Positions 4,227-64,000 of a DNA stretch of 64,000 nt are shown piece by piece. The DNA lies in the IMG/VR virus record IMGVR_UViG_3300037067_009442, positions 157,721 through 221,720 of that record; one strand, written 5' to 3'. This stretch comes from a virus (taxonomy: Duplodnaviria; Heunggongvirae; Uroviricota; Caudoviricetes). The position numbers were made by a program, and so were the translations under genes. Numbering within the stretch: position 1 is the stretch's first letter; each line of letters opens with the position of its first letter. The notes below the pieces were generated by a model. That model was not told the origin of the DNA, made no database searches, and worked only from the letters and a program-made list of their open reading frames with translations.

Positions 4227-4497
4227 GAACACCCTCCTTAGTATTAGTTGCCGAGTAGTAGGTCCCGGCGGGACTACGGTCGACTTCTACCCCACCAACG
4301 GGGGTCTCAAGGCTATCTGGCACAACGAGAACTGCCCTTACACCCCTTGCAATGAAGAGACCTACGAGGCTGAGGATGGCTCCAACGTCACTCACATCCC
4401 ATGGGATAACCTATCAAAACTACTAGGGGTAATGCCACCTTCCGGTGGATCTCCAAGGCTCCAACCTCAACCCAAAAAAGGAGGTAAGCGCAAGTAG
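4111..4497 (+). CDS. Hypothetical basic or Pro-rich protein
   Basis: 128-aa ORF overlapping the 3930..4226 ORF in another frame. The start is uncertain. Confidence 0.25.
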   Translation: MFNQKATLGPSAPSAKSTKWKFAWSGLLKSTPRRPLVGKNTLLSISCRVVGPGGTTVDFYPTNGGLKAIWHNENCPYTPCNEETYEAEDGSNVTHIPWDNLSKLLGVMPPSGGSPRLQPQPKKGGKRK

Positions 4498-4642
4498 CCC
4501 TAGAAAGATCACTACTTAATGCTACCTACCTAACAATTCCTATTGCCATTCCTAAGATCTCCTATCATAGTGTCCTAGGAATCGCTTTTTGATTCAGGTT
4601 TCGAAATGAGGTCTCACTGAGACCCTAGAAAGAGAAAAGACA

Positions 4643-4993
4643 ATGAGTGATAACAGGTCTGATTTCATCCGCAAGTACCCTAATATGTCCCCTGCCGAAC
4701 TCATCGCCGAAGCGGCCAAGCTAGGTATCGAAATCAAGAAGGGGCTTGTCTACAACGTCCGCTCCAAGATCAAGAACTCCGGGGAAGATGTCGGCAAGTC
4801 CAAGAAGAAGGCCCCCAAGGCAGCGAAGGCCTCCAAGGCAGCGAAGGCCTCCAAGGCAGCGAAGGCCTCCAAGGCAGCGAAGGCCCCCAAGGCAGCACCA
4901 GTGAGCCACCAGACCAAGGGATCCGGTCCTTGCTCGGTCACCCTCAACTTCAAGTCCCGAGCTGCCCTTCAAGCTGCACTGGCTCGCCTCTAG
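4643..4993 (+). CDS. Histone H1-like / KA-repeat DNA-binding protein
   Basis: The C-terminal half carries KAPKAAKASKAAKASKAAKASKAAKAPKAA, encoded by near-perfect 18-bp tandem DNA repeats. Confidence 0.5.
   Translation: MSDNRSDFIRKYPNMSPAELIAEAAKLGIEIKKGLVYNVRSKIKNSGEDVGKSKKKAPKAAKASKAAKASKAAKASKAAKAPKAAPVSHQTKGSGPCSVTLNFKSRAALQAALARL
4809..4895 (+). repeat. 18-bp tandem repeat (gcagcgaaggcctccaag), about 4.7 copies, coding for AAKASK units
   Basis: Read directly. Only one copy differs (ccc for tcc). Confidence 0.7.
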
Positions 4994-5128: not shown

Positions 5129-5737
5129 ATGTTTGAACACTTTGGGGTAGACCCTAAGCTGGTTTCGGTAGCCCTAGTTGCTGATCTCATCCCTGTGATT
5201 AATGGTATGTTCCAGGGAACCAACGGTCTAAGCGAGATTACTGCCATACTAGGAATCACTCGAGATCCTAGGAGTGGTAAACCCCTGGAGGGTATGCAAC
5301 TCTACCTCTTGCGTGATCGCTCTGACCTTGGGCTTGATGACAGTAACCAAGGAAAGTCTAAGTTCGCTCAGATCCTCAGGGTAATGGCGGAGAAGTCAGG
5401 GGCTACTTTTATAGCCATCCTGTCGGAGGTCTGGACAGTGAAGTCCTCTGAGGATCCGGAAGAAACCAAGGCTATTAGAGACTGGGTAACACTCTACCGG
5501 GACATCAGTCAGTGCCCCTACCGTCAAGAAGCTGTGATGGTTCAGCTAGAGCACCAAAGGGCGACCCCTAGGCATCAACTATGGACGGCGCCCATTAAGG
5601 AAGACTCAAACGGTGTTCGTACCGTGGGTGAGTTTGTACTTAGCGAGCACGAAGGGTACTCTGGTCGATTCGCCAACTTGTTGCCAAGTGCGAGTGATGA
5701 AAACCCACCTCCAGAGGTTCAGGTTCAAGCGAACTGA
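5129..5737 (+). CDS. Hypothetical protein
   Basis: 202-aa ORF with a gagga Shine-Dalgarno-like sequence upstream. Confidence 0.45.
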   Translation: MFEHFGVDPKLVSVALVADLIPVINGMFQGTNGLSEITAILGITRDPRSGKPLEGMQLYLLRDRSDLGLDDSNQGKSKFAQILRVMAEKSGATFIAILSEVWTVKSSEDPEETKAIRDWVTLYRDISQCPYRQEAVMVQLEHQRATPRHQLWTAPIKEDSNGVRTVGEFVLSEHEGYSGRFANLLPSASDENPPPEVQVQAN

Positions 5738-5809
5738 AAAGAACGAGGGGTCTGTTTCATGGGGTGCAAAAGAACCCGTCGCAGGATCTCCCTGCGCACC
5801 ATACCCCCT

Positions 5810-6061
5810 CTAAAATCCAAGTACTGCCTGATCAATATTGGCAAATAATTCCAGAGATGAGATCAGTTCCTGGTAAGTCAACCAAGCATTCTCTGGTGAG
5901 TTATTGGTAAGGGCCAATCGGAAACCCTCTATGTGTGAAGTGGCAGCAGCGATTAAGTGGTCGAGGTAGCCACCCTCAGCTTCAAGAGCTTCCTCAAGAC
6001 AGAGGCTTGCAATCTCAGCATGAGTAGATAGGGGATCCAGGGAGGTAACTAAGACGAGCAT
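5810..6061 (-). CDS. Hypothetical protein
   Basis: 83-aa ORF. Confidence 0.3.
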   Translation of the reverse strand: MLVLVTSLDPLSTHAEIASLCLEEALEAEGGYLDHLIAAATSHIEGFRLALTNNSPENAWLTYQELISSLELFANIDQAVLGF

Positions 6062-36876: not shown

Positions 36877-37588
36877 CAGAGAGCATCCGAGCATAAAATA
36901 CTGGATTGAGGCCGTAGGTACCTAAGGAGTACCCTTCGTTCATTTCGACGAGAAGGGTCTTACCTGAGTCCGTCACTCCCCAGTCAAGACTATATGCGGT
37001 CGGGGCGGTACCCTTCATGAGCTGTACAGCCTCTTCCACGGTAGACCGATCCGGAGCCTTAGCCCAATCCCCCTTGTAGTGGCGGCAATCTAGGATGGCG
37101 TGATCCAAGATGAAACTTCGATACTCCGAGACGAAGTTGACGGGCTCAGAGATCCAAATCTCCACATCATCTGCCAGAGTTACCGTCTTTCTCCTTGATT
37201 CAGGGTCATTCGGTAGCCACAGGAGACCGCTAAATAGCTTGTGCTCTAGCGGCTTGATGAACCAAGGGTAGTGTGATTGACGAACATCCTCGAGAAGACC
37301 CTTGAAGAGTTTTCGCTCCAAGAACTTCTCGAGAGGAGTCGGGTAGTCTACGACCGGAGGGATCGGTTTCCCCAACTTGGTTAGTGCTCGGTGAACATCT
37401 CCGATGTACCCAGCAACCCCAACAGTAGGTCCTAAATCCTCAATGGAATCAATATCATCAATCCACTCATAGGGGTTTGTTTCGATCCCTAGTTCCCAGA
37501 ACCCTCTCCGAGCTGAATCCTGAAGGGTCGTTTCGGGGTAACCCTCACGGTGACGAACATAGAATTTAGTGGCTTTAGGGGGGTTCAT
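36851..37588 (-). CDS. Hypothetical protein
   Basis: 245-aa ORF. Confidence 0.4.
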   Translation of the reverse strand: MNPPKATKFYVRHREGYPETTLQDSARRGFWELGIETNPYEWIDDIDSIEDLGPTVGVAGYIGDVHRALTKLGKPIPPVVDYPTPLEKFLERKLFKGLLEDVRQSHYPWFIKPLEHKLFSGLLWLPNDPESRRKTVTLADDVEIWISEPVNFVSEYRSFILDHAILDCRHYKGDWAKAPDRSTVEEAVQLMKGTAPTAYSLDWGVTDSGKTLLVEMNEGYSLGTYGLNPVFYARMLSARWFEMTS

Positions 37589-38003
37589 GGTGTACTTGGG
37601 AGAAGTGTCTGAATCAACTCTACAAGATCTGTCCGACGTCTCTGACGAAACTCTCCTTCAGATGCTCGATGTTGAGCGAGGGAAGTTCACTAAGTCGGAT
37701 TCAGACAAGATCAAGTACTACATCGATACTCTGATTGAAAGAGGGGTTTATCCGAAAGAGACTGTCGAAGGGAACCCTAACGACGTCTATACCATGGTTT
37801 CGGGGTGGGGGGCTTATTGGCACGTCTGGGAGGGGATCTTAGAATGCCCCTTTTGCGAAGCAGACCTTAGGGACTCTAAGTCGGGCCCCCCTTTCCTCCG
37901 TCAGATTGGTATCTCAGACAGAGGTCAAGACAGGATCACTGCATGGCAGTGCCCTGATTGTAAGATTAGTTGGCAGCGTGGTATTCTAACTGTCAAGAAG
38001 TAG
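37569..38003 (+). CDS. Zinc-ribbon hypothetical protein
   Basis: CPFCEADL ... CPDCKISW. Confidence 0.35.
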   Translation: MALGGFMVYLGEVSESTLQDLSDVSDETLLQMLDVERGKFTKSDSDKIKYYIDTLIERGVYPKETVEGNPNDVYTMVSGWGAYWHVWEGILECPFCEADLRDSKSGPPFLRQIGISDRGQDRITAWQCPDCKISWQRGILTVKK

Positions 38004-38032
38004 AGCTCCCACCAGATCAATGTCTCTAAGGA

Positions 38033-57879: not shown

Positions 57880-58556
57880 ATTACACTGGACAGCTAGATC
57901 CGAGGGGTGTATATCACGAGACCCTCACGTGTCTGTTGAGGTTGGTTACCTGTTCCATGACCAGACCCAGTACGAAAATAGAGCTGGCGAAGGTACGAGG
58001 ACCCCTGGATTACTCCACAGGATTGTCCTCGAAAAACTTCCGTGCTTCAACCCGTGGATCGGACACCTCTTCCTTAAGAAGAGTCTCCCGGGATAGTTCC
58101 CTAAGCATCAGAGGCCGATTGGCTTCTGATGTCATCCTTGGCTTCAAAAGGGTCTTGGATGGAGCTCTATCACTTGAGAGGGAGTTAGTGACCTCAAGTG
58201 GTAATCTCATAGGGGCGGATCGACATGGGTTCTTCTTCCCTTGTTCCATCCTCATGCTCAAGTAGCCCAACAGAGATCAAGAACGAATGACCAAGTTGAA
58301 CCAAGTAGGACTTACCTCGGAGGCTTCCTCCGTTGTTCCCTCTTCGTTCTCTGGGATCATGATCTATGTTAAGTAGTATTCTGTAGAATACTACCACTTA
58401 GTGGTGAAGTTAAGACCAAATCAATCACAAAAAACAGTAATACTGATACTCCAACTCCAATAAGCGAAGCTTGAGAAACAACCCCTAGTAGTAGAAGACG
58501 TAAAGGCATCCCTAGAGTCAAAGAGTCAAACCAAGGCCTGGAGTCAACTGAGGACC

Positions 58557-59288
58557 TCAGGTAGTAGTGAAGAAGCTAGTAACGTAGGTCCAACAGATCG
58601 ATGGGTTGGTCCTAGTGCCATAATTGGCACCAACCTCGTTAGCTCGTTCGAAGAATCGTTTTGAATCTTCGAGGCGTCCTAATACAAGCATCTCTATAGC
58701 TTTAGCCCAGAAGCTCAAGCTGAGGGTTTCAACCGCTTTGTCACCTTCTCCAGGTTCATCTTCGTTCATGCGACTGATGTAGCTTAGGACAGCTTTGTCA
58801 CCGGTAGTTACCCACTTCATCCAACCGATTGCTAAAGCCTCAAAGGTCCTCTGTGACCACTTGGTTCCAGTAGGCGAGTCAGGGATCAACCCCTCTTTGG
58901 GTTTACCTAGGCAATGGTTCAAACAGAAGATAAGCAACTTGGTCTCAAACCTATCGGGACACTGAGGTTGGAGCTCAAGGGCTTCTCTGACACGAAGGAT
59001 CGCTCGCTCCAAGGAACCCTCTTGGAATGAAACTTCAAATAGTGCTTGTTGGGCTACCATTTCTGCGAGTATTGCCCCAACCTCTTCAGTGTTATCAGGT
59101 AAATCTAAGTCAATCTCATTGTCGATCAATGATTGAAGCGTGGGTACTATGTGTTTTGGGTTAGTCATTCTTGAGAGGAGCTTCCTCTTGCCTAGATGGG
59201 ATTTTCTCTGCGGCGTAAGGCTAACTTCTTCGTGCATTGGGTTCCCATTTTCCATTGACACCGGTCCACTCAATGGGCTAAAACACAA
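58557..59288 (-). CDS. Hypothetical protein
   Basis: 243-aa ORF. Confidence 0.35.
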   Translation of the reverse strand: MCFSPLSGPVSMENGNPMHEEVSLTPQRKSHLGKRKLLSRMTNPKHIVPTLQSLIDNEIDLDLPDNTEEVGAILAEMVAQQALFEVSFQEGSLERAILRVREALELQPQCPDRFETKLLIFCLNHCLGKPKEGLIPDSPTGTKWSQRTFEALAIGWMKWVTTGDKAVLSYISRMNEDEPGEGDKAVETLSLSFWAKAIEMLVLGRLEDSKRFFERANEVGANYGTRTNPSICWTYVTSFFTTT

Positions 59289-59379
59289 GACCCCTCACTG
59301 AGTAAGGTACCAATGAAGTATGTGCTTGGTACTGAGGTCACAAAACTCCTTGAGGGTATAATCAGAGCAGAGGTCCATA

Positions 59380-60531
59380 GTGATTAACTGTGCTATCCCA
59401 GCCATTTCTGAGATCCCTGATGATTATGTACCTAGTAATTATGACGAACTGTATGAGGTTTACGCCCCATTCGTGACTCGTTTGGTTACTCGCTACAATC
59501 GAGTGCATGCGAACTTCGAGGATCTCCTTCAGCACGTTTGGATGGAAGTCCTAAGGGTCAACTTGATCCAGAAGTACAATACCTCAACAGGTACCCTCCC
59601 AAAGAGGATGACCGCTCTTCAGGTCTGTGCCTTCCTTGGGATTCCTTGGGGGACCTTCAAGATTGGGAATGTGCGAGCTAAGAGCGGGGACATTCGGCGG
59701 AAGAAGAAATCAGAATTCATCTGGGCCCCTGAGGCCCTAGAGAGAGAGATCTACCTTCGGGATAATGGCGTGTGTCACAGCTGTGGCATGGATACCAAAA
59801 TCCTCACCACCTTCTTTGAGGACCACTGGGAGAACTCCAATAAAGGTGCTTATGCCTTGCAGATGGGAAGGATCGGACTGCCTTCGGATCACCGCACTTG
59901 GTCCTACGTTGGTTTAGACGAATCCATAGCCTTCAATAGGAATGACACCTTCAAGGTTAGGTACAAGGTCTTCTGTGCTGCTTGTGTAGTCTCTAATTTC
60001 AGTTCGATCCCGACAGCTAGAGTCAAGCCGGAGAAGAACTGCATGAAGTATTTGGTTCCTGTAGTAGGGACCCACGCTTCGAAGAAGGCTCAGTATGCTC
60101 GGGAGGATGTTCTTCGGTTTAAGCAGTTTCGAGATAAGAATACTCGCTGCAAGAAGACTCAAGGGGTAATGCCCGAAGTGGCTCAATCCAAAGCCAACTT
60201 CAAACCTTACCTTGCTAGATCAGTTCACAATATCTACGCTAATTGGTGTCGGACTAGGAAACGAAGGTATAAGGAGCACTTTCCAGGTGTGGACTTAGAG
60301 ACAGGTCGTTCTTGGGAGGACGCTTTAGTTGATCCCTGTGGTCCGCGTCAAGAGAATCTGCTTGAGTTGAACGAGATCATCAGTCAATTCTTCGATGGTC
60401 GTGAGGAGCTTATAGCCTCCAGGAAAGAGGAGTTACTGTCTTTAGTGGCAAAAGGCCTAACTCCTGAAGAGATTGTCTCCAGGATGAAGCTACCAAAGCA
60501 TGTCCTTAAGAAACTCACGCGTAGTCGCTGA
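59380..60531 (+). CDS. Sigma-70/ECF-like factor with internal Cys-rich (HNH-like/zinc-ribbon) insertion
   Basis: Region-2-like FEDLLQHVWMEVLRV and C-terminal HTH-like LTPEEIVSRMKLPKHVLKKLTRSR. The insert carries YLRDNGVCHSCGMD ... CAAC. Confidence 0.4.
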   Translation: MINCAIPAISEIPDDYVPSNYDELYEVYAPFVTRLVTRYNRVHANFEDLLQHVWMEVLRVNLIQKYNTSTGTLPKRMTALQVCAFLGIPWGTFKIGNVRAKSGDIRRKKKSEFIWAPEALEREIYLRDNGVCHSCGMDTKILTTFFEDHWENSNKGAYALQMGRIGLPSDHRTWSYVGLDESIAFNRNDTFKVRYKVFCAACVVSNFSSIPTARVKPEKNCMKYLVPVVGTHASKKAQYAREDVLRFKQFRDKNTRCKKTQGVMPEVAQSKANFKPYLARSVHNIYANWCRTRKRRYKEHFPGVDLETGRSWEDALVDPCGPRQENLLELNEIISQFFDGREELIASRKEELLSLVAKGLTPEEIVSRMKLPKHVLKKLTRSR

Positions 60532-60542
60532 GAATCAATTTA

Positions 60543-61355
60543 TTGGGATTGAGTAGTGTGTCGAGCCCTACTATCCGATTGAACCAAGCCGTCTACAACC
60601 TCAGAGCAAGGGTAGCTTCATCCCTACCTTGGGGTCTCCGTGTTGCTCGGGTCCTTCACCGTATTCGGTTCGCAACCGAGCCGGCTGAATTCGGACAAGC
60701 TATGTACGGCCTCTTCCTCCTATTTGGAGTTGAGGGGATGCCACCGGCCCCCTTCATGCCGAAGAACACAAGAGAGATCTCACGTCTCAAGGGTTACGGG
60801 AAAGAGTTCGGAACTAAGGCCGCTGGTACAGTTGCTCGGTACTTCAGGAACCAAGAGGATAGCAGACGGAAAGAGACCGTCCGAGATGTACTCTCAATGG
60901 TCTTCCTTAAGTTGTATACGGACAAGAGCCTAAAGAACACACTGGAGGGTAAAGACTTATCCTTTGCGGAGCATTACATTCTCCGAGCAGTTCATAATCA
61001 AGCTCTCGATGTCGTTCGAAGTGAGAAGAAGCGTAAGACTGAGGATGTTGAGGACATGCTAGTCGAACCAGCTTCTTGGGATACTATTGGGGACATTCTT
61101 CCTCAAGCAGAGCAATCCGAGATCATACGAGATATCAAGAGGGTTGTTGGGGATGAACGGGCAGAGGATGTGGCCCTCTACTTCCAGTTGATGCTTGATG
61201 GGTACTCTGACGTCGAGATTACCAAAGGTAGACTTCTCCCTTACCTAAGGGAGAAGGAGTTTCAAGACGACAGTAGAGCCGACGGGATGCTGGACAAGTA
61301 CAAAAGGAAGATTCGGGAAGTTCTGTTGAAACATGATGTACAGCCTCCGGTGTAA
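60543..61355 (+). CDS. ECF-type sigma factor-like protein
   Basis: Region 2 is ETVRDVLSMVFLKLYTD ... FAEHYILRAVHNQALDVVRSEKKRK. Region 4 is ERAEDVALYFQLMLDGYSDVEI. The gene ends with TAA at 61353-61355. Confidence 0.45.
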   Translation: MGLSSVSSPTIRLNQAVYNLRARVASSLPWGLRVARVLHRIRFATEPAEFGQAMYGLFLLFGVEGMPPAPFMPKNTREISRLKGYGKEFGTKAAGTVARYFRNQEDSRRKETVRDVLSMVFLKLYTDKSLKNTLEGKDLSFAEHYILRAVHNQALDVVRSEKKRKTEDVEDMLVEPASWDTIGDILPQAEQSEIIRDIKRVVGDERAEDVALYFQLMLDGYSDVEITKGRLLPYLREKEFQDDSRADGMLDKYKRKIREVLLKHDVQPPV

Positions 61356-61364
61356 TTCAGCACT

Positions 61365-61529
61365 GTGAACTTACCTCTCAACACAATCATCAATGGTCTG
61401 TGTCTGCCTGTACTGAAGACGCTGCCTGATGAGTTCCTTGATGCCCTGGTCACCGATCCCCCTTACGGCCTGGGAGACAAGGACCCAACCCTAGAAGAGA
61501 TCATCGCCTACCTTCAAGGTAGGCGATGA
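61365..61529 (+). pseudogene. N-terminal module of the DNA methyltransferase (motif IV, LVTDPPYGL), in a different frame from the rest of the gene and lacking an ATG
   Basis: The frame-0 translation VNLPLNTIINGLCLPVLKTLPDEFLDALVTDPPYGLGDKDPTLEEIIAYLQGRR* is a canonical beta-class MTase N-terminus. The only possible start is GTG at 61365. It is in frame with the upstream ORF across its TAA stop. The rest of the MTase is in the +1 frame from 61495/61537. Confidence 0.45.
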
Positions 61530-61536
61530 TCTCAAT

Positions 61537-63408
61537 ATGGGTGAGTTCATGAATCGGGACTGGGAGCTCCCCTCAGTGGCTGTTTGGAGGGAGTGCTATC
61601 GGATCATGAAGCCTGGGGCCTTTCTCCTCTGCTTCGCTGGTACACGAACCCTAGACATCCTCTCTATTGGGATCCGAGCTGCAGGGTTTGAGAACAGGGA
61701 CTGCATTCCTACTGAGATGGGCCCTCCCATCCTTCGGTGGATCAGAGCTCAAGGGATGCCAAAGAGCACTGATATTGAAAAACTCATTCTTAGTGGTATT
61801 GAGAGGAGTTATGGTAAAAAAGTCTGCAGTTGCAACCAAAAAGAAGGAACGCACAGTAAAGTGGACCCCGAAGTGGATCAGTTTACTAGGTTCAATGTCG
61901 GATGCAAAACTAGCAGTGCAGATGGGTTGCGGGGAACTATCAGTGAGTCGGAAACGTCGCCAACTCAAGATTCAGTCCTATCGTTCTCAGAACGGGTCGA
62001 AGCCAGTGGCTTGCTCGGTATGCGGGAAGATCAGGATGAGACAAGCGAAGAACTCAAAGAGGTGCAAGCACCCTTATTGTTCAACTCAATGCTCAGCGGA
62101 AGGTCAACGTCGTCGGGACTTGGAGATACTTCGGTACGGGCCAGGTTGGAAGAAGATTCGGAACGAAGTTCGGGATCGGGACAAGGTGTGTCGGATTTGC
62201 GGAAAAACCCCAGAACAAAACGGGGCCGAACTTCAAGTTCATCACTTGAAGCCCTATCGATTTCAGGGGTCAAATCAACTGAGAAATCTGATAGCGCTTT
62301 GCACCAGTTGTCACCACAAGATAGAAGCAATCACAAGTACTGCTCTGGACTTGATTCAGATCGAAGTAAGCCTAGAGAGGTCTTTTCTAACCGTTATGTT
62401 GATGGGTCAGATTCTGTGGCAAGGGTCTGTTCTTGGTGTGGGCTCCCAGATCCTGATTGGATCAGATCTACCCAAGGGTTAGGAACTGCTTTAAAACCTT
62501 ATTGGGAGCCTATTCTAGTTTTCCGTAAGCCTATAGTTGAGGGGTCAGTATTAAAGCAAGTAGTGGCGACTGGGACTGGTGGGATCAACATCGAAGCTTC
62601 TCGAGTCAAGCACTCCTCTAAAGAGGATTTTGAGGCCCATAAAAAGGGGGTTGATGCCATTAAAGCTCGAGGGGGCAAGATGGCCAACAGCTGGAAGAAC
62701 AGCTCAGATCTCTCCGGGGCTAATGATGTCAAAACCTCGGGTCGCTTCCCTCCAAACCTGATCATCGTCCACTCAGACCTCTGTATCAAGATGGGGACTG
62801 AGATGGTGGCAATGCCCCCTATCAATCGCTTTGACGATGGAGCTAAGCCATTTGGCGGTGGGGCAGGGCACAAGTATACGACCGTTCATCGAGATGATGA
62901 GGAAGTTGAGATCTGGGATTGCCATCACTCATGCCCAGTACGGTGGCTCAACTACCACAGTGGAGCGGTCAGCGAGAAACCAGCTAAGAAGAAGAAAGGG
63001 GAACCAAGGTTAGAAAAACAAGAGCCGTTGGGAGCCTCCAAGTACTTCTTCAATGTGAACCCAGACTCCACCTTCTTCTACGTACCCAAGCCCAATCAAC
63101 GTGAGAAGGATGAAGGTTTGGATGAGGATGAGGAGAATGAGCACGTCTCGGTGAAGCCTGTGAGGCTCATGGAGTATTTGGTCAAGATGGTGACCCCACC
63201 CAAGGGGATCGTTCTCGACCCTTATTGTGGATCAGGTACCACTTGCGTTGCTGCAATCCGCTCAGGATTTGACTTCATTGGTATCGAGAAAGAAGCGCCG
63301 TCCGCCGCCACCTCTCAAGCTAGGGTTGAGAATGCTCTTCGGGAACGGCGGGAGATTGAGACTCAACGGGAAGCGTTCGAGCTCTCTCTTGAGCTTGAAT
63401 CAGAGTAG
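61537..63408 (+). CDS. Beta-class N6-adenine/N4-cytosine DNA methyltransferase, body and C-terminus, containing an embedded +1-frame HNH gene
   Basis: Sequence order: W..ECYRIMKPGAFLLCFAG, GFENRD, then a 225-aa low-complexity insert, WEPILVFRKP, motif X VKPVRLMEYLV and motif I VLDPYCGSGTT. This matches the permuted beta-class order IV-V-VIII-X-I. Confidence 0.55.
   Translation: MGEFMNRDWELPSVAVWRECYRIMKPGAFLLCFAGTRTLDILSIGIRAAGFENRDCIPTEMGPPILRWIRAQGMPKSTDIEKLILSGIERSYGKKVCSCNQKEGTHSKVDPEVDQFTRFNVGCKTSSADGLRGTISESETSPTQDSVLSFSERVEASGLLGMREDQDETSEELKEVQAPLLFNSMLSGRSTSSGLGDTSVRARLEEDSERSSGSGQGVSDLRKNPRTKRGRTSSSSLEALSISGVKSTEKSDSALHQLSPQDRSNHKYCSGLDSDRSKPREVFSNRYVDGSDSVARVCSWCGLPDPDWIRSTQGLGTALKPYWEPILVFRKPIVEGSVLKQVVATGTGGINIEASRVKHSSKEDFEAHKKGVDAIKARGGKMANSWKNSSDLSGANDVKTSGRFPPNLIIVHSDLCIKMGTEMVAMPPINRFDDGAKPFGGGAGHKYTTVHRDDEEVEIWDCHHSCPVRWLNYHSGAVSEKPAKKKKGEPRLEKQEPLGASKYFFNVNPDSTFFYVPKPNQREKDEGLDEDEENEHVSVKPVRLMEYLVKMVTPPKGIVLDPYCGSGTTCVAAIRSGFDFIGIEKEAPSAATSQARVENALRERREIETQREAFELSLELESE
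61811..62482 (+). mobile_element. HNH endonuclease gene nested in the +1 frame inside the methyltransferase ORF
   Basis: Canonical HNH core CRICGKTPEQNGAELQVHHLKPYRFQGSNQLRNLIALCTSCHHKIE, preceded by a CSVCG...CKHPYC zinc ribbon. ATG at 61811. The frame is open from 61667. Confidence 0.55.
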
Positions 63409-63745
63409 TCTTTTGAAGGTGGGTTAGCTTCTTGATAGCAAACTCTCTCTTGAGGGCATTACCCTTTCCTTCAACCACCTCTAGATAGACATTCACCCAA
63501 GGCCGCCCTGCTCGGGTAGCCTTGGCCCCTCTACCTGCATTGTGGGTTTTTAGTCTACTTTCAGGGTTGTTGCTGATTCCGGTGTAGTATCTACCAGTGA
63601 CTTCACTCCGAATAATGTAGACAAACCAAGTGGAACACCTATCAATACTCGATAAGTTTGTAGTTGGCGGTGATGAGAGTGATGAGGGCTGGAAGCTCGG
63701 CCCGTTTTTGGTCAGTAAGGAAGGGGTATTCTGGTCAGTAGTCAC
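63320..63745 (-). CDS. GIY-YIG nuclease family protein (YhbQ/Slx1-like)
   Basis: WFVYIIRSEVTGRYYTGISNNPESRLKTHNAGRGAKATRAGRPW. It overlaps the 3' end of the MTase gene. Confidence 0.5.
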   Translation of the reverse strand: MTTDQNTPSLLTKNGPSFQPSSLSSPPTTNLSSIDRCSTWFVYIIRSEVTGRYYTGISNNPESRLKTHNAGRGAKATRAGRPWVNVYLEVVEGKGNALKREFAIKKLTHLQKTTLIQAQERARTLPVESQSPAVPEEHSQP

Positions 63746-64000
63746 TTGTCATCATACACTGGTTGCATTCAAGGATGCAGGTGCAATACCGATCCCTGAC
63801 TCCCCTGACTTCCCTTTCCTGTGGCTCCCTCGAGATCCCTTGGCTACTCAGGTTGACAAGACTGAGGTCAGAGTATGGACGAAGGTCCAAGACTCGAATC
63901 TGATTGAGTTAGGTAAATACTCAGTGAACAGTGCTGCCCAGGGTATCATCGTAGGAGTTCTACTTGATATACGGAAGCTAGCTTACCTTCTGGACCAACT

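Follow-up and report, generated by a model that had tools for sequence, protein, structure and literature searches.

A lineage-specific frameshift in a DNA methyltransferase gene of a large uncultured phage, very probably left by a quasipalindrome template switch

Template switching during DNA synthesis can make an imperfect repeat perfect, or bring it closer to perfection, the first case having been found in the rIIB gene of phage T4 (PMC7202029). Quasipalindrome mutations of this kind follow the model of Ripley (1982) and have been described from T4 rIIB, yeast CYC1 and the E. coli thyA and lacZ reporters (PMC7202029). The locus reported here lies in a 64,000-nt stretch of DNA (the window) and resembles the quasipalindrome reporters in that an imperfect repeat has become perfect, a clustered substitution and indel match a copy of the opposite arm, and the result is a frameshift. 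Unlike the laboratory reporters, the allele in the window appears as a fixed or majority one in an environmental large-phage genome.

The gene affected encodes a DNA methyltransferase that is like the beta-class N6-adenine/N4-cytosine enzymes (PF01555; PHROG 67) in having a DPPY motif IV near the N-terminus and an FxGxG-type motif I (DPYCGSGTT) near the C-terminus, with solved relatives including 8URK, DpnA (5HEK) and CcrM (6PBD). Unlike other beta-class methyltransferases, it is not a single open reading frame (ORF) and carries a 216-codon selfish insertion. Such an insertion has been described as the ShiLan-type element, which interrupts a methylase gene without closing its frame and carries, in a different frame, the code for an HNH endonuclease (PMC11855218). 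We conclude that the frameshift is very probably genuine and lineage-specific and came from a quasipalindrome template-switch error in DNA synthesis, with a loss-of-function or strongly hypomorphic allele as its most likely outcome.

Two reading frames of one methyltransferase gene

The N-terminal methyltransferase fragment (61365..61529, plus strand) begins at GTG 61365 and ends at TGA 61527-61529 after 54 codons. Its product in the ORF list is (M)NLPLNTIINGLCLPVLKTLPDEFLDALVTDPPYGLGDKDPTLEEIIAYLQGRR*, in which DPPY is the catalytic motif IV. The remaining methyltransferase is encoded on the same strand in the +1 frame, which is open from 61495, directly after TAG 61492-61494, and has its first ATG at 61537. 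The resulting ORF of 623 aa (61537..63408) matched Pfam N6_N4_Mtase (E = 1.9e-22; PF01555 profile score 80.8 bits against a cut-off of 26.7) as well as, significantly, the PHROG 67 profile, and holds motifs V-VIII, a TALKPxxEP segment and the C-terminal motif I DPYCGSGTT. By translation and alignment, frame 0 encodes DPPY and frame 1 encodes DPYCGSGTT, and the TGA at 61527-61529 cuts DPPY off from the remainder, where a beta-class enzyme has one polypeptide. Since the frame-0 and frame-1 products, when joined, are colinear with single-ORF homologues, whose N-termini align with the DPPY segment, the two ORFs are the two halves of one gene. This layout was proposed in a first-pass annotation of the letters and is confirmed by the ORFs and their translations.

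The absence of an ATG at the start of the methyltransferase, also raised in that annotation, is ordinary, because all four relatives in the alignment keep the GTG, and the homologous codon is the called start of two relatives (P0054 and P0060). It is invariant in the window and in L025, L003 and L004, which upholds GTG 61365 as the start of the N-terminal module.

Upstream, the ORF 60543..61355 ends at TAA 61353..61355 (plus strand), located 9 nt 5' of the GTG and in the same frame, so the continuity of the two frames through this stop stands as first described, and the tRNA with a UUA anticodon was likewise found at 41610-41698. The label of this ORF as sigma-like did not hold, as no sigma-factor signature was detected in it by Pfam and PHROG profile searches; one is present one ORF further upstream (59380..60531). 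A link between the TAA and the tRNA was also suggested, and recoding of TAA by this tRNA was rejected: TAA is the stop of 18 of the 66 long ORFs, and the readthrough fusion is not conserved. L025 has the identical TAA, while L003 and L004 have an extra TGA upstream and L004 has TAG at the TAA position, leaving the genes of both separated by two in-frame stops (TGA, then TAA or TAG). Standard-code ORFs cover 81% of the window. The in-frame TAA is incidental.

The palindrome at the break and its origin

A close intact relative, L025, is 89% identical at the nucleotide level and encodes a protein of 463 aa (P0054). The enzyme is a single-frame product, starting at the homologous GTG, in L025, L003, L004, P0056-P0060 and others, more distant large-phage relatives among them. 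DNA alignments with L025, L003 and L004 located the shift at 61521..61527 (plus strand), where seven mutant nucleotides, AGGCGAT, stand in place of three, for a net gain of 4 nt. L025 has GCA at this position and relatives have a single Ser or Ala codon there. The change from GCA to AGGCGAT is the sole indel in coding DNA over the 3.4 kb aligned with L025, and it brings a TGA in frame two codons past the junction. Of the first-pass proposal of a real +1 mutation leaving an inactive or phase-variable enzyme, the real mutation is retained, but it is a net +4 nt change (3 to 7 nt) rather than a simple +1. Phase variation is dropped, there being no simple-sequence repeat at the shift site such as a phase-variable methyltransferase would have (homopolymers of at most 3 and only a GATGAT doublet in 61495-61540).

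The break is located inside a perfect 37-nt palindrome (61497..61533, no strand assigned) that was missed in the first pass. It reads GAGATCATCGCCTACCTT-C-AAGGTAGGCGATGATCTC, with 18 + 1 + 18 nt verified by an exact reverse-complement check, and is the second-longest perfect hairpin within the 64 kb, where about 4e-6 occurrences of a perfect 17-bp stem with a 3-nt loop would be expected. Its left arm belongs to the ancestral coding sequence (EIIAYL): L004 has the same letters there, and they code for the conserved EEI(I/V)AYL. The right arm holds the mutation and the premature TGA. The mutant AGGCGAT matches, base for base, the reverse complement of ATCGCCT in the opposite arm (61503-61509), which accounts for it with the alignment colinear on both sides and the flanks unchanged; the chance of this 7-nt complementarity, given the pre-existing flanks, is 4^-7 or about 6e-5. 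The folded RNA of 61495-61600 has a free energy of -48.7 kcal/mol (z = -4.8). An intrinsic terminator or promoter was looked for at the palindrome and not found.

In L025 the corresponding sequence, GAGATC...ACCTTCAGGGT-GCA-GATCTT, is an imperfect repeat. Its DNA folds in that register too, but only into a weak hairpin (-5.1 kcal/mol, z = -0.8, compared to -20 kcal/mol, z = -8.9 for 61490-61540 of the window), as expected of a quasipalindrome precursor state. The ancestor suggested by the relatives would have been GAGATC-ATCGCCT-ACCTT-C-AAGGT-NNN-GATCTC, encoding EIIAYLQG(A/S)DL, in which the exact codon at NNN (GCA, AGC or TCA) is an inference from those relatives. Six outer and five inner complementary base pairs would already have been present in this repeat. 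The nascent strand would then have looped onto itself and used the opposite arm as its template through the unpaired middle, replacing the NNN codon by AGGCGAT (the complement of ATCGCCT), making the repeat perfect with 18-bp arms and adding 4 nt. One gene would thereby have become a 54-aa fragment with the catalytic DPPY and a 623-aa fragment with everything else. The observation thus stands but is an ordinary one: the break bears the footprint of a replication error of a known type, and is not that of a programmed frameshift.

The change could also be an artefact of sequencing or of the library, such as a template switch made by the polymerase in an in-vitro amplification step and carried into the consensus, and this was weighed against the assemblies. 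Switching at inverted repeats happens in vitro too, one sample is known to contain the site, and the site was judged from assemblies rather than reads. The Logan assembly of SRR18595300 is 100% identical to the window over 5,464 nt including the site, and since the Logan and JGI contigs may share reads, this base-for-base agreement excludes assembler error, not a library-level artefact. Such an artefact would need to dominate the reads at the locus, and the clean double switch returning to the correct template is unlike a fold-back chimera. A random error would not yield seven nucleotides exactly complementing the opposite arm, and coding indels are absent elsewhere in the region relative to L025. 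An artefact is therefore very unlikely, and the sequencing or assembly indel offered in the first pass is unlikely.

A single genome of the lineage covers the break site. Exact-pattern scans of IMG/VR for the same lineage gave no match, a metagenome scan for it gave only relatives at 77% amino acid identity or less, and the 90% cluster contained only a C-terminal fragment (P0053), L025 having come from a protein search. The 19-nt palindrome core had 11 unrelated matches, mostly in Amycolatopsis, in 596 Gb of bacterial and archaeal genomes, which is compatible with chance for this length. A candidate second break at the same place (P0008/L026) was left out because the gene is fragmented in several places and the contig name suggests nanopore sequencing.

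Recoding, loss of function or a functional split

The site shares with prfB-type and Ty-type +1 frameshifting and with the T4 gene 60 bypass a 0-frame stop soon after a +1 overlap and a stable hairpin nearby. The new 18-bp hairpin with its embedded TGA could in principle act as a recoding signal, stimulating either a +1 shift in GGU-AGG-CGA-UGA (at GGU-AGG-C) or a 22-nt hop from GGU 61518-61520 to GGU 61540-61542, so that the full-length enzyme would still be made. The premature stop, the overlap at 61495-61526, the very stable hairpin, the matched GGT codons 22 nt apart and the intact downstream ORF are all in keeping with this. Against it, the shift is not conserved, every relative examined having the enzyme in one frame, and the site has an obvious mutational origin that requires no selective history for recoding. 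Unlike the prfB and Ty sites, the window has no slippery codon or rare-codon context: no P-site codon in the overlap is able to re-pair in +1 next to a slow A-site codon (GGU to GUA, AGG to GGC and CGA to GAU re-pair poorly). The AGG and CGA codons, taken as rare in the first-pass case for programmed +1 frameshifting in a 35-nt overlap, rank first and second among Arg codons in the long ORFs of the window (26% and 21%). In T4 gene 60 the stop directly follows the take-off codon; here it comes two codons after the putative one (matched GGT at 61518 and 61540), and the frame-1 codons that a hop would skip still specify the homologous peptide DDLNMG. We give recoding almost no credence. If it did occur, a full-length methyltransferase, possibly at a reduced and regulated level, would be produced, and the locus would show a recoding site newly arisen from one replication error.

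A reading that shares the mutational origin and differs only in consequence is a functional split, in which translation terminates at TGA 61527-61529 and reinitiates at ATG 61537, and the 54-aa and 623-aa products assemble into an active enzyme. The ATG begins only 7 nt past the stop. The AlphaFold2 structure predicted for P0054 puts residues 51-54, where the break falls, in a surface loop between a helix (43-50) and a beta-hairpin (55-67), and in the alignment mycobacteriophage homologues entirely lack the segment that contains the break. The family tolerates large insertions, and in L027/L028 a free-standing HNH gene divides the methyltransferase into two ORFs. The ATG is an old internal Met codon rather than an evolved start; the protein alignment shows Met kept in the closest relatives (DLDMGEF, ELDMGEF) and replaced by Thr or Val in P0056 and P0057. 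The sole Shine-Dalgarno-like sequence, AAGGTAGG at 61516-61523, is located 14-21 nt 5' of the ATG and inside the hairpin. The N-terminal fragment supplies a core beta-strand and the catalytic loop, which weighs against assembly in trans. No relative examined, including L025 at 89% nucleotide identity, shares the frameshift or is split at the position of the break.

Strong purifying selection in both halves would also be in line with a functional split. The dN/dS values relative to L025 were 0.058 for the N-terminal piece and 0.015 and 0.052 for the downstream piece, similar to the neighbouring genes (0.06-0.07), at a dS of about 0.5-0.7, and no further lesions were seen in the methyltransferase beyond the frameshift. 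A very recent mutation explains the low dN/dS equally. The low dN/dS and the otherwise intact 623-codon ORF fit a tolerated or a functional split equally well. With dN/dS like that of the neighbours and neither further lesions nor stops in the insert described below, the lesion would be recent or tolerated, and young relative to the dS.

We consider a functional split unlikely. Judged from sequence, the template switch most likely left an allele of recent origin that has lost its function or is strongly hypomorphic. Any residual activity would need reinitiation at ATG 61537 and reassembly of both fragments.

A nested HNH element and the meaning for annotation

Within the downstream half, a ShiLan-type insertion element (61773..62475, plus strand) has 703 nt where L025 has 55 nt by blastn, a net gain of 648 nt that is in frame and without stops in the methyltransferase frame. 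It was placed by aligning the protein with Molly gp60 of a mycobacteriophage and with homologues that carry or lack the insert, and the region is 67% identical in DNA to mycobacteriophage methyltransferase/HNH loci. An HNH homing endonuclease ORF, overlooked in the first pass, lies out of frame with the host (61811..62482, plus strand; 223 aa from ATG 61811, open from 61667), with matches to Pfam HNH (1.8e-9), to a PHROG HNH endonuclease (4e-21) and to Molly gp61 (49% identity over 196 aa, E = 4e-73). The insert is absent from L025 at 89% nucleotide identity, present in P0056 and P0057 and degenerate in P0055. The approximately 90 nt of its 3' flank (62476-62565) are only 67.8% identical to L025. 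This sporadic presence among close relatives and the diverged flank are consistent with homing and co-conversion.

The element is like the mycobacteriophage ShiLan-type in its place, methyltransferase family, lack of methylase-frame stops and sporadic distribution. Unlike those, it is carried by a large uncultured phage (contig of 228,619 bp), and its ATG is preceded by GAGAGGAG, whereas a leaderless GTG has been proposed for the mycobacteriophage HNH gene. It is a separate selfish insertion of an already described kind, unrelated to the frameshift about 250 nt upstream.

Other origins considered for these features were set aside. A template switch tied to repair synthesis during HNH homing is speculative, as the co-conversion tract is located only 3' of the insert and the adjoining 5' flank is 95% identical to L025, giving no support for the link. 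A group I or II intron or structured RNA at the break or the insert was rejected after a whole-window Rfam scan at gathering thresholds returned only the tRNA, and an intein was rejected because the HNH and host frames differ and splicing motifs were not seen. One relative (L009) has a genuine intein-like insert at a different site.

Current understanding is unchanged by these results. The locus provides a clean natural case of quasipalindrome template switching in a large phage that is uncultured, and a sister genome keeps the precursor state. The ShiLan-type hidden-HNH element, described recently in actinobacteriophages, is now seen in large environmental phages as well. Comparing the local inverted repeat with that of a close relative can be enough to explain what looks like a recoding site. 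For annotation, both ORFs are one disrupted methyltransferase gene; labels such as programmed frameshift, readthrough fusion or N-terminally truncated enzyme do not apply.

Reading frames of the split methyltransferase

The methyltransferase was divided between two reading frames. The N-terminal module with the DPPY motif was encoded in frame 0 from GTG 61365 to TGA 61527-61529, giving the product (M)NLPLNTIINGLCLPVLKTLPDEFLDALVTDPPYGLGDKDPTLEEIIAYLQGRR*, and the remainder was encoded in the +1 frame, which was open from 61495 (just after TAG 61492-61494), contained an ATG at 61537 and ended at 63408. This 623-aa +1-frame ORF matched Pfam N6_N4_Mtase (E = 1.9e-22). The two-frame layout described in the first-pass annotation was confirmed in its coordinates and stops, including a TAA at 61353-61355 that is in frame with the N-terminal module and closes the ORF 60543..61355. 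The lack of an ATG on that module had been taken as an oddity; GTG is indeed the start but was invariant in the window, a close relative (L025) and two large phage contigs (L003 and L004), so this gene ordinarily begins without an ATG.

When the frames were joined (frame 0 up to GGT 61520, then frame 1), the N-terminus aligned colinearly with many single-ORF methyltransferases, and the two ORFs are one gene. All related loci encoded ...DPPYGLG-D/N-R/K-DP-x-EEI-I/V-AYL-x-G-S/A-x-L-D-x-G-EFM... in a single frame, including those of L003 (512 kb, 77% aa identity), L004 (407 kb, 72%) and further large-phage loci of lower identity. The full-length reconstruction used as a query recovered the 463-aa protein P0054, which was 92% identical overall (alignment A2) and 95% identical across the best local match. 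P0054 is encoded on L025, a JGI contig with 89% DNA identity to the window, and was unbroken with the homologous GTG start and no HNH insertion.

A spacing of 9 nt between the upstream stop and the GTG was kept in L025 (TAA), L003 (TAA) and L004 (TAG), and L003 and L004 had a TGA that ended the upstream gene a few codons sooner, leaving two in-frame stops before the methyltransferase. TAA closed 18 of the 66 long ORFs in the window, and standard-code ORFs covered 81% of it. A link between the methyltransferase and the upstream gene across the TAA, noted earlier, was therefore not supported, as nothing points to a readthrough fusion, and there was no sign of genome-wide TAA reassignment. A tRNA at 41610-41698 was present as annotated, with a long variable arm and a UUA anticodon that would read the UAA stop. 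The upstream gene (60543-61355), previously called sigma-like, gave no sigma-factor match in Pfam or PHROG; such a match came from the ORF before it, 59380-60531 (Sigma70_r2 4.7e-7, PHROG 1740). A GIY-YIG nuclease ORF (63320-63745, minus strand, Pfam 1.2e-18) overlapped the methyltransferase 3' end on the opposite strand, and the related contigs L027/L028 had one at the equivalent relative position.

The lesion and its mutational mechanism

The window read CTTCAAGGT-AGGCGAT-GATCTCAATATG where L025 read CTTCAGGGT-GCA-GATCTTGACATG. Alignment to related methyltransferases, which had been proposed for locating the shift, thus placed it at seven nucleotides standing for one codon (net +4 nt in the DNA alignment), which was Ala in L025 and the homologous proteins P0056 and P0057 and Ser in L003, L004, P0055 and P0058. 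This was the sole coding indel in the 3.4 kb alignment of the window and L025; the five others were single-base and all intergenic.

Folding of the region identified a perfect palindrome at 61497-61533, GAGATCATCGCCTACCTT-C-AAGGTAGGCGATGATCTC, ranking second by length among perfect hairpins in the 64-kb window. The DNA fold of 61490-61540 was -20 kcal/mol (z = -8.9) compared with -5.1 kcal/mol (z = -0.8) for the homologous L025 segment in the same register. The left arm was the same in L004, codes for the conserved EIIAYL and is ancestral coding sequence. Six outer base pairs (GAGATC/GATCTC, in codons E-I and D-L) and five inner ones (ACCTT/AAGGT) had been complementary beforehand. The inserted AGGCGAT was the exact reverse complement of left-arm ATCGCCT, for which the chance with an arbitrary 7-nt replacement, given the flanks, is 4^-7 (~6e-5). 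Such a pattern is what defines a quasipalindrome template-switch mutation, in which the nascent strand briefly takes itself or the opposite arm as template and the repeat is perfect afterwards. Phage T4 rIIB and yeast CYC1 were the systems in which this mechanism was originally identified (Ripley 1982, summarised in PMC7202029). One such event accounts for the cluster of substitutions, the added 4 nt, the altered frame and the TGA that follows at once, and a real frameshift mutation, as the first-pass annotation had listed among its options, was the correct reading.

Two other options had been a sequencing or assembly error and programmed +1 frameshifting. Assembler error was ruled out by an independent, base-identical Logan assembly (L010, run SRR18595300; 100% identity to 58537-64000, site included), and an artefact of the library, which would need to make up most of the reads and involve a clean double switch, is unlikely. 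Recoding that restores the frame is scarcely credible, since the supposedly rare AGG and CGA were the two commonest Arg codons across the 66 long ORFs (26% and 21%), the overlap codons re-pair poorly in +1 (GGU to GUA, AGG to GGC, CGA to GAU) and the shift was found in none of the homologues. The GGT codons at 61518 and 61540 match and would in principle permit a 22-nt hop, but stop and take-off codon are not neighbours, and frame 1 of the supposed gap still codes for the homologous peptide DDLNMG.

The longest perfect hairpin of the window lay elsewhere, at 38011-38058 (22-bp stem, 4-nt loop; ACCAGATCAATGTCTCTAAGGA-TCAC-...), between convergent ORFs 37569..38003 (+) and 38033..38509 (-), where it may terminate transcription in both directions or bind a protein.

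Age and consequence of the break

Relative to L025, dN/dS was 0.058 upstream of the break (52 codons, dS 0.46), 0.015 and 0.052 in two downstream segments (81 and 310 codons, dS 0.74 and 0.61) and 0.061 and 0.073 in two neighbouring genes (270 and 383 codons, dS 0.37 and 0.63). No further lesions were found across the 623 codons and the methyltransferase frame had zero stops through a 703-nt insertion. Together these indicate that the break is either very recent compared with the divergence from L025 or tolerated.

AlphaFold2 modelling of P0054 (mean pLDDT 70.6, above 88 for the first 30 residues) put the break at residues 51-54, within the loop that connects helix 43-50 to beta-hairpin 55-67, and mycobacteriophage homologues entirely lacked the segment containing it. 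The ATG at 61537, which lies 7 nt past the premature TGA, was an internal Met codon in the ancestral gene. These features make termination-reinitiation at this ATG with fragment complementation conceivable, if rather improbable; by default the allele is taken to be a recent null or hypomorph.

Insertions in the methyltransferase family

The 703-nt insertion (61773-62475) replaced 55 nt of L025, kept the methyltransferase frame and lay some 250 nt 3' of the frameshift, to which no connection was demonstrable. Across 61773-62482 the host frame was open for 234 codons and another frame encoded an HNH endonuclease (Pfam 1.8e-9, PHROG 4e-21), with GAGAGGAG before its ATG at 61811, a TAG stop at 62482 and 49% identity to mycobacteriophage Molly gp61, which is annotated as nested within methyltransferase gp60. 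The insert is a ShiLan-type 'hidden HNH' homing element as described by Arsenault et al. 2025 (PMC11855218), earlier descriptions of such out-of-frame elements being from actinobacteriophages (PMC11855218). The HNH stop overlapped methyltransferase codons TTA-GGA (GLG), and GLG with ILVF tracked the insert whereas insert-free alleles had GFG with ILMF. Identity to L025 fell to 67.8% in the 90 nt that directly follow the insert (62476-62565), compared with ~88% elsewhere, and from this sequence pattern those 90 nt look like a homing co-conversion tract.

In P0055 (Logan, 521 aa) only both insertion ends were kept (...ARYGNKTCCCT...VARVCSWCGLPDP...) and the HNH-coding middle was deleted, probably representing a degenerating copy of the element. 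In a related phage (L027/L028, 3983-6814) a free-standing HNH gene (4477-4974) divided the methyltransferase at the ShiLan site, leaving two ORFs, with no Rfam intron match at the locus. The C-terminal part contained a second large insertion, in which a further HNH ORF lay on the minus strand (5529-5987). In L009 (~6270 onward) and L021 a related methyltransferase was broken right after FAG by an intein-like sequence starting with Cys (CYDEHTEVLTRKGWVRFPDV...). The split methyltransferase is a fresh instance of already known phenomena, and selfish insertions of several kinds appear to concentrate in its family.
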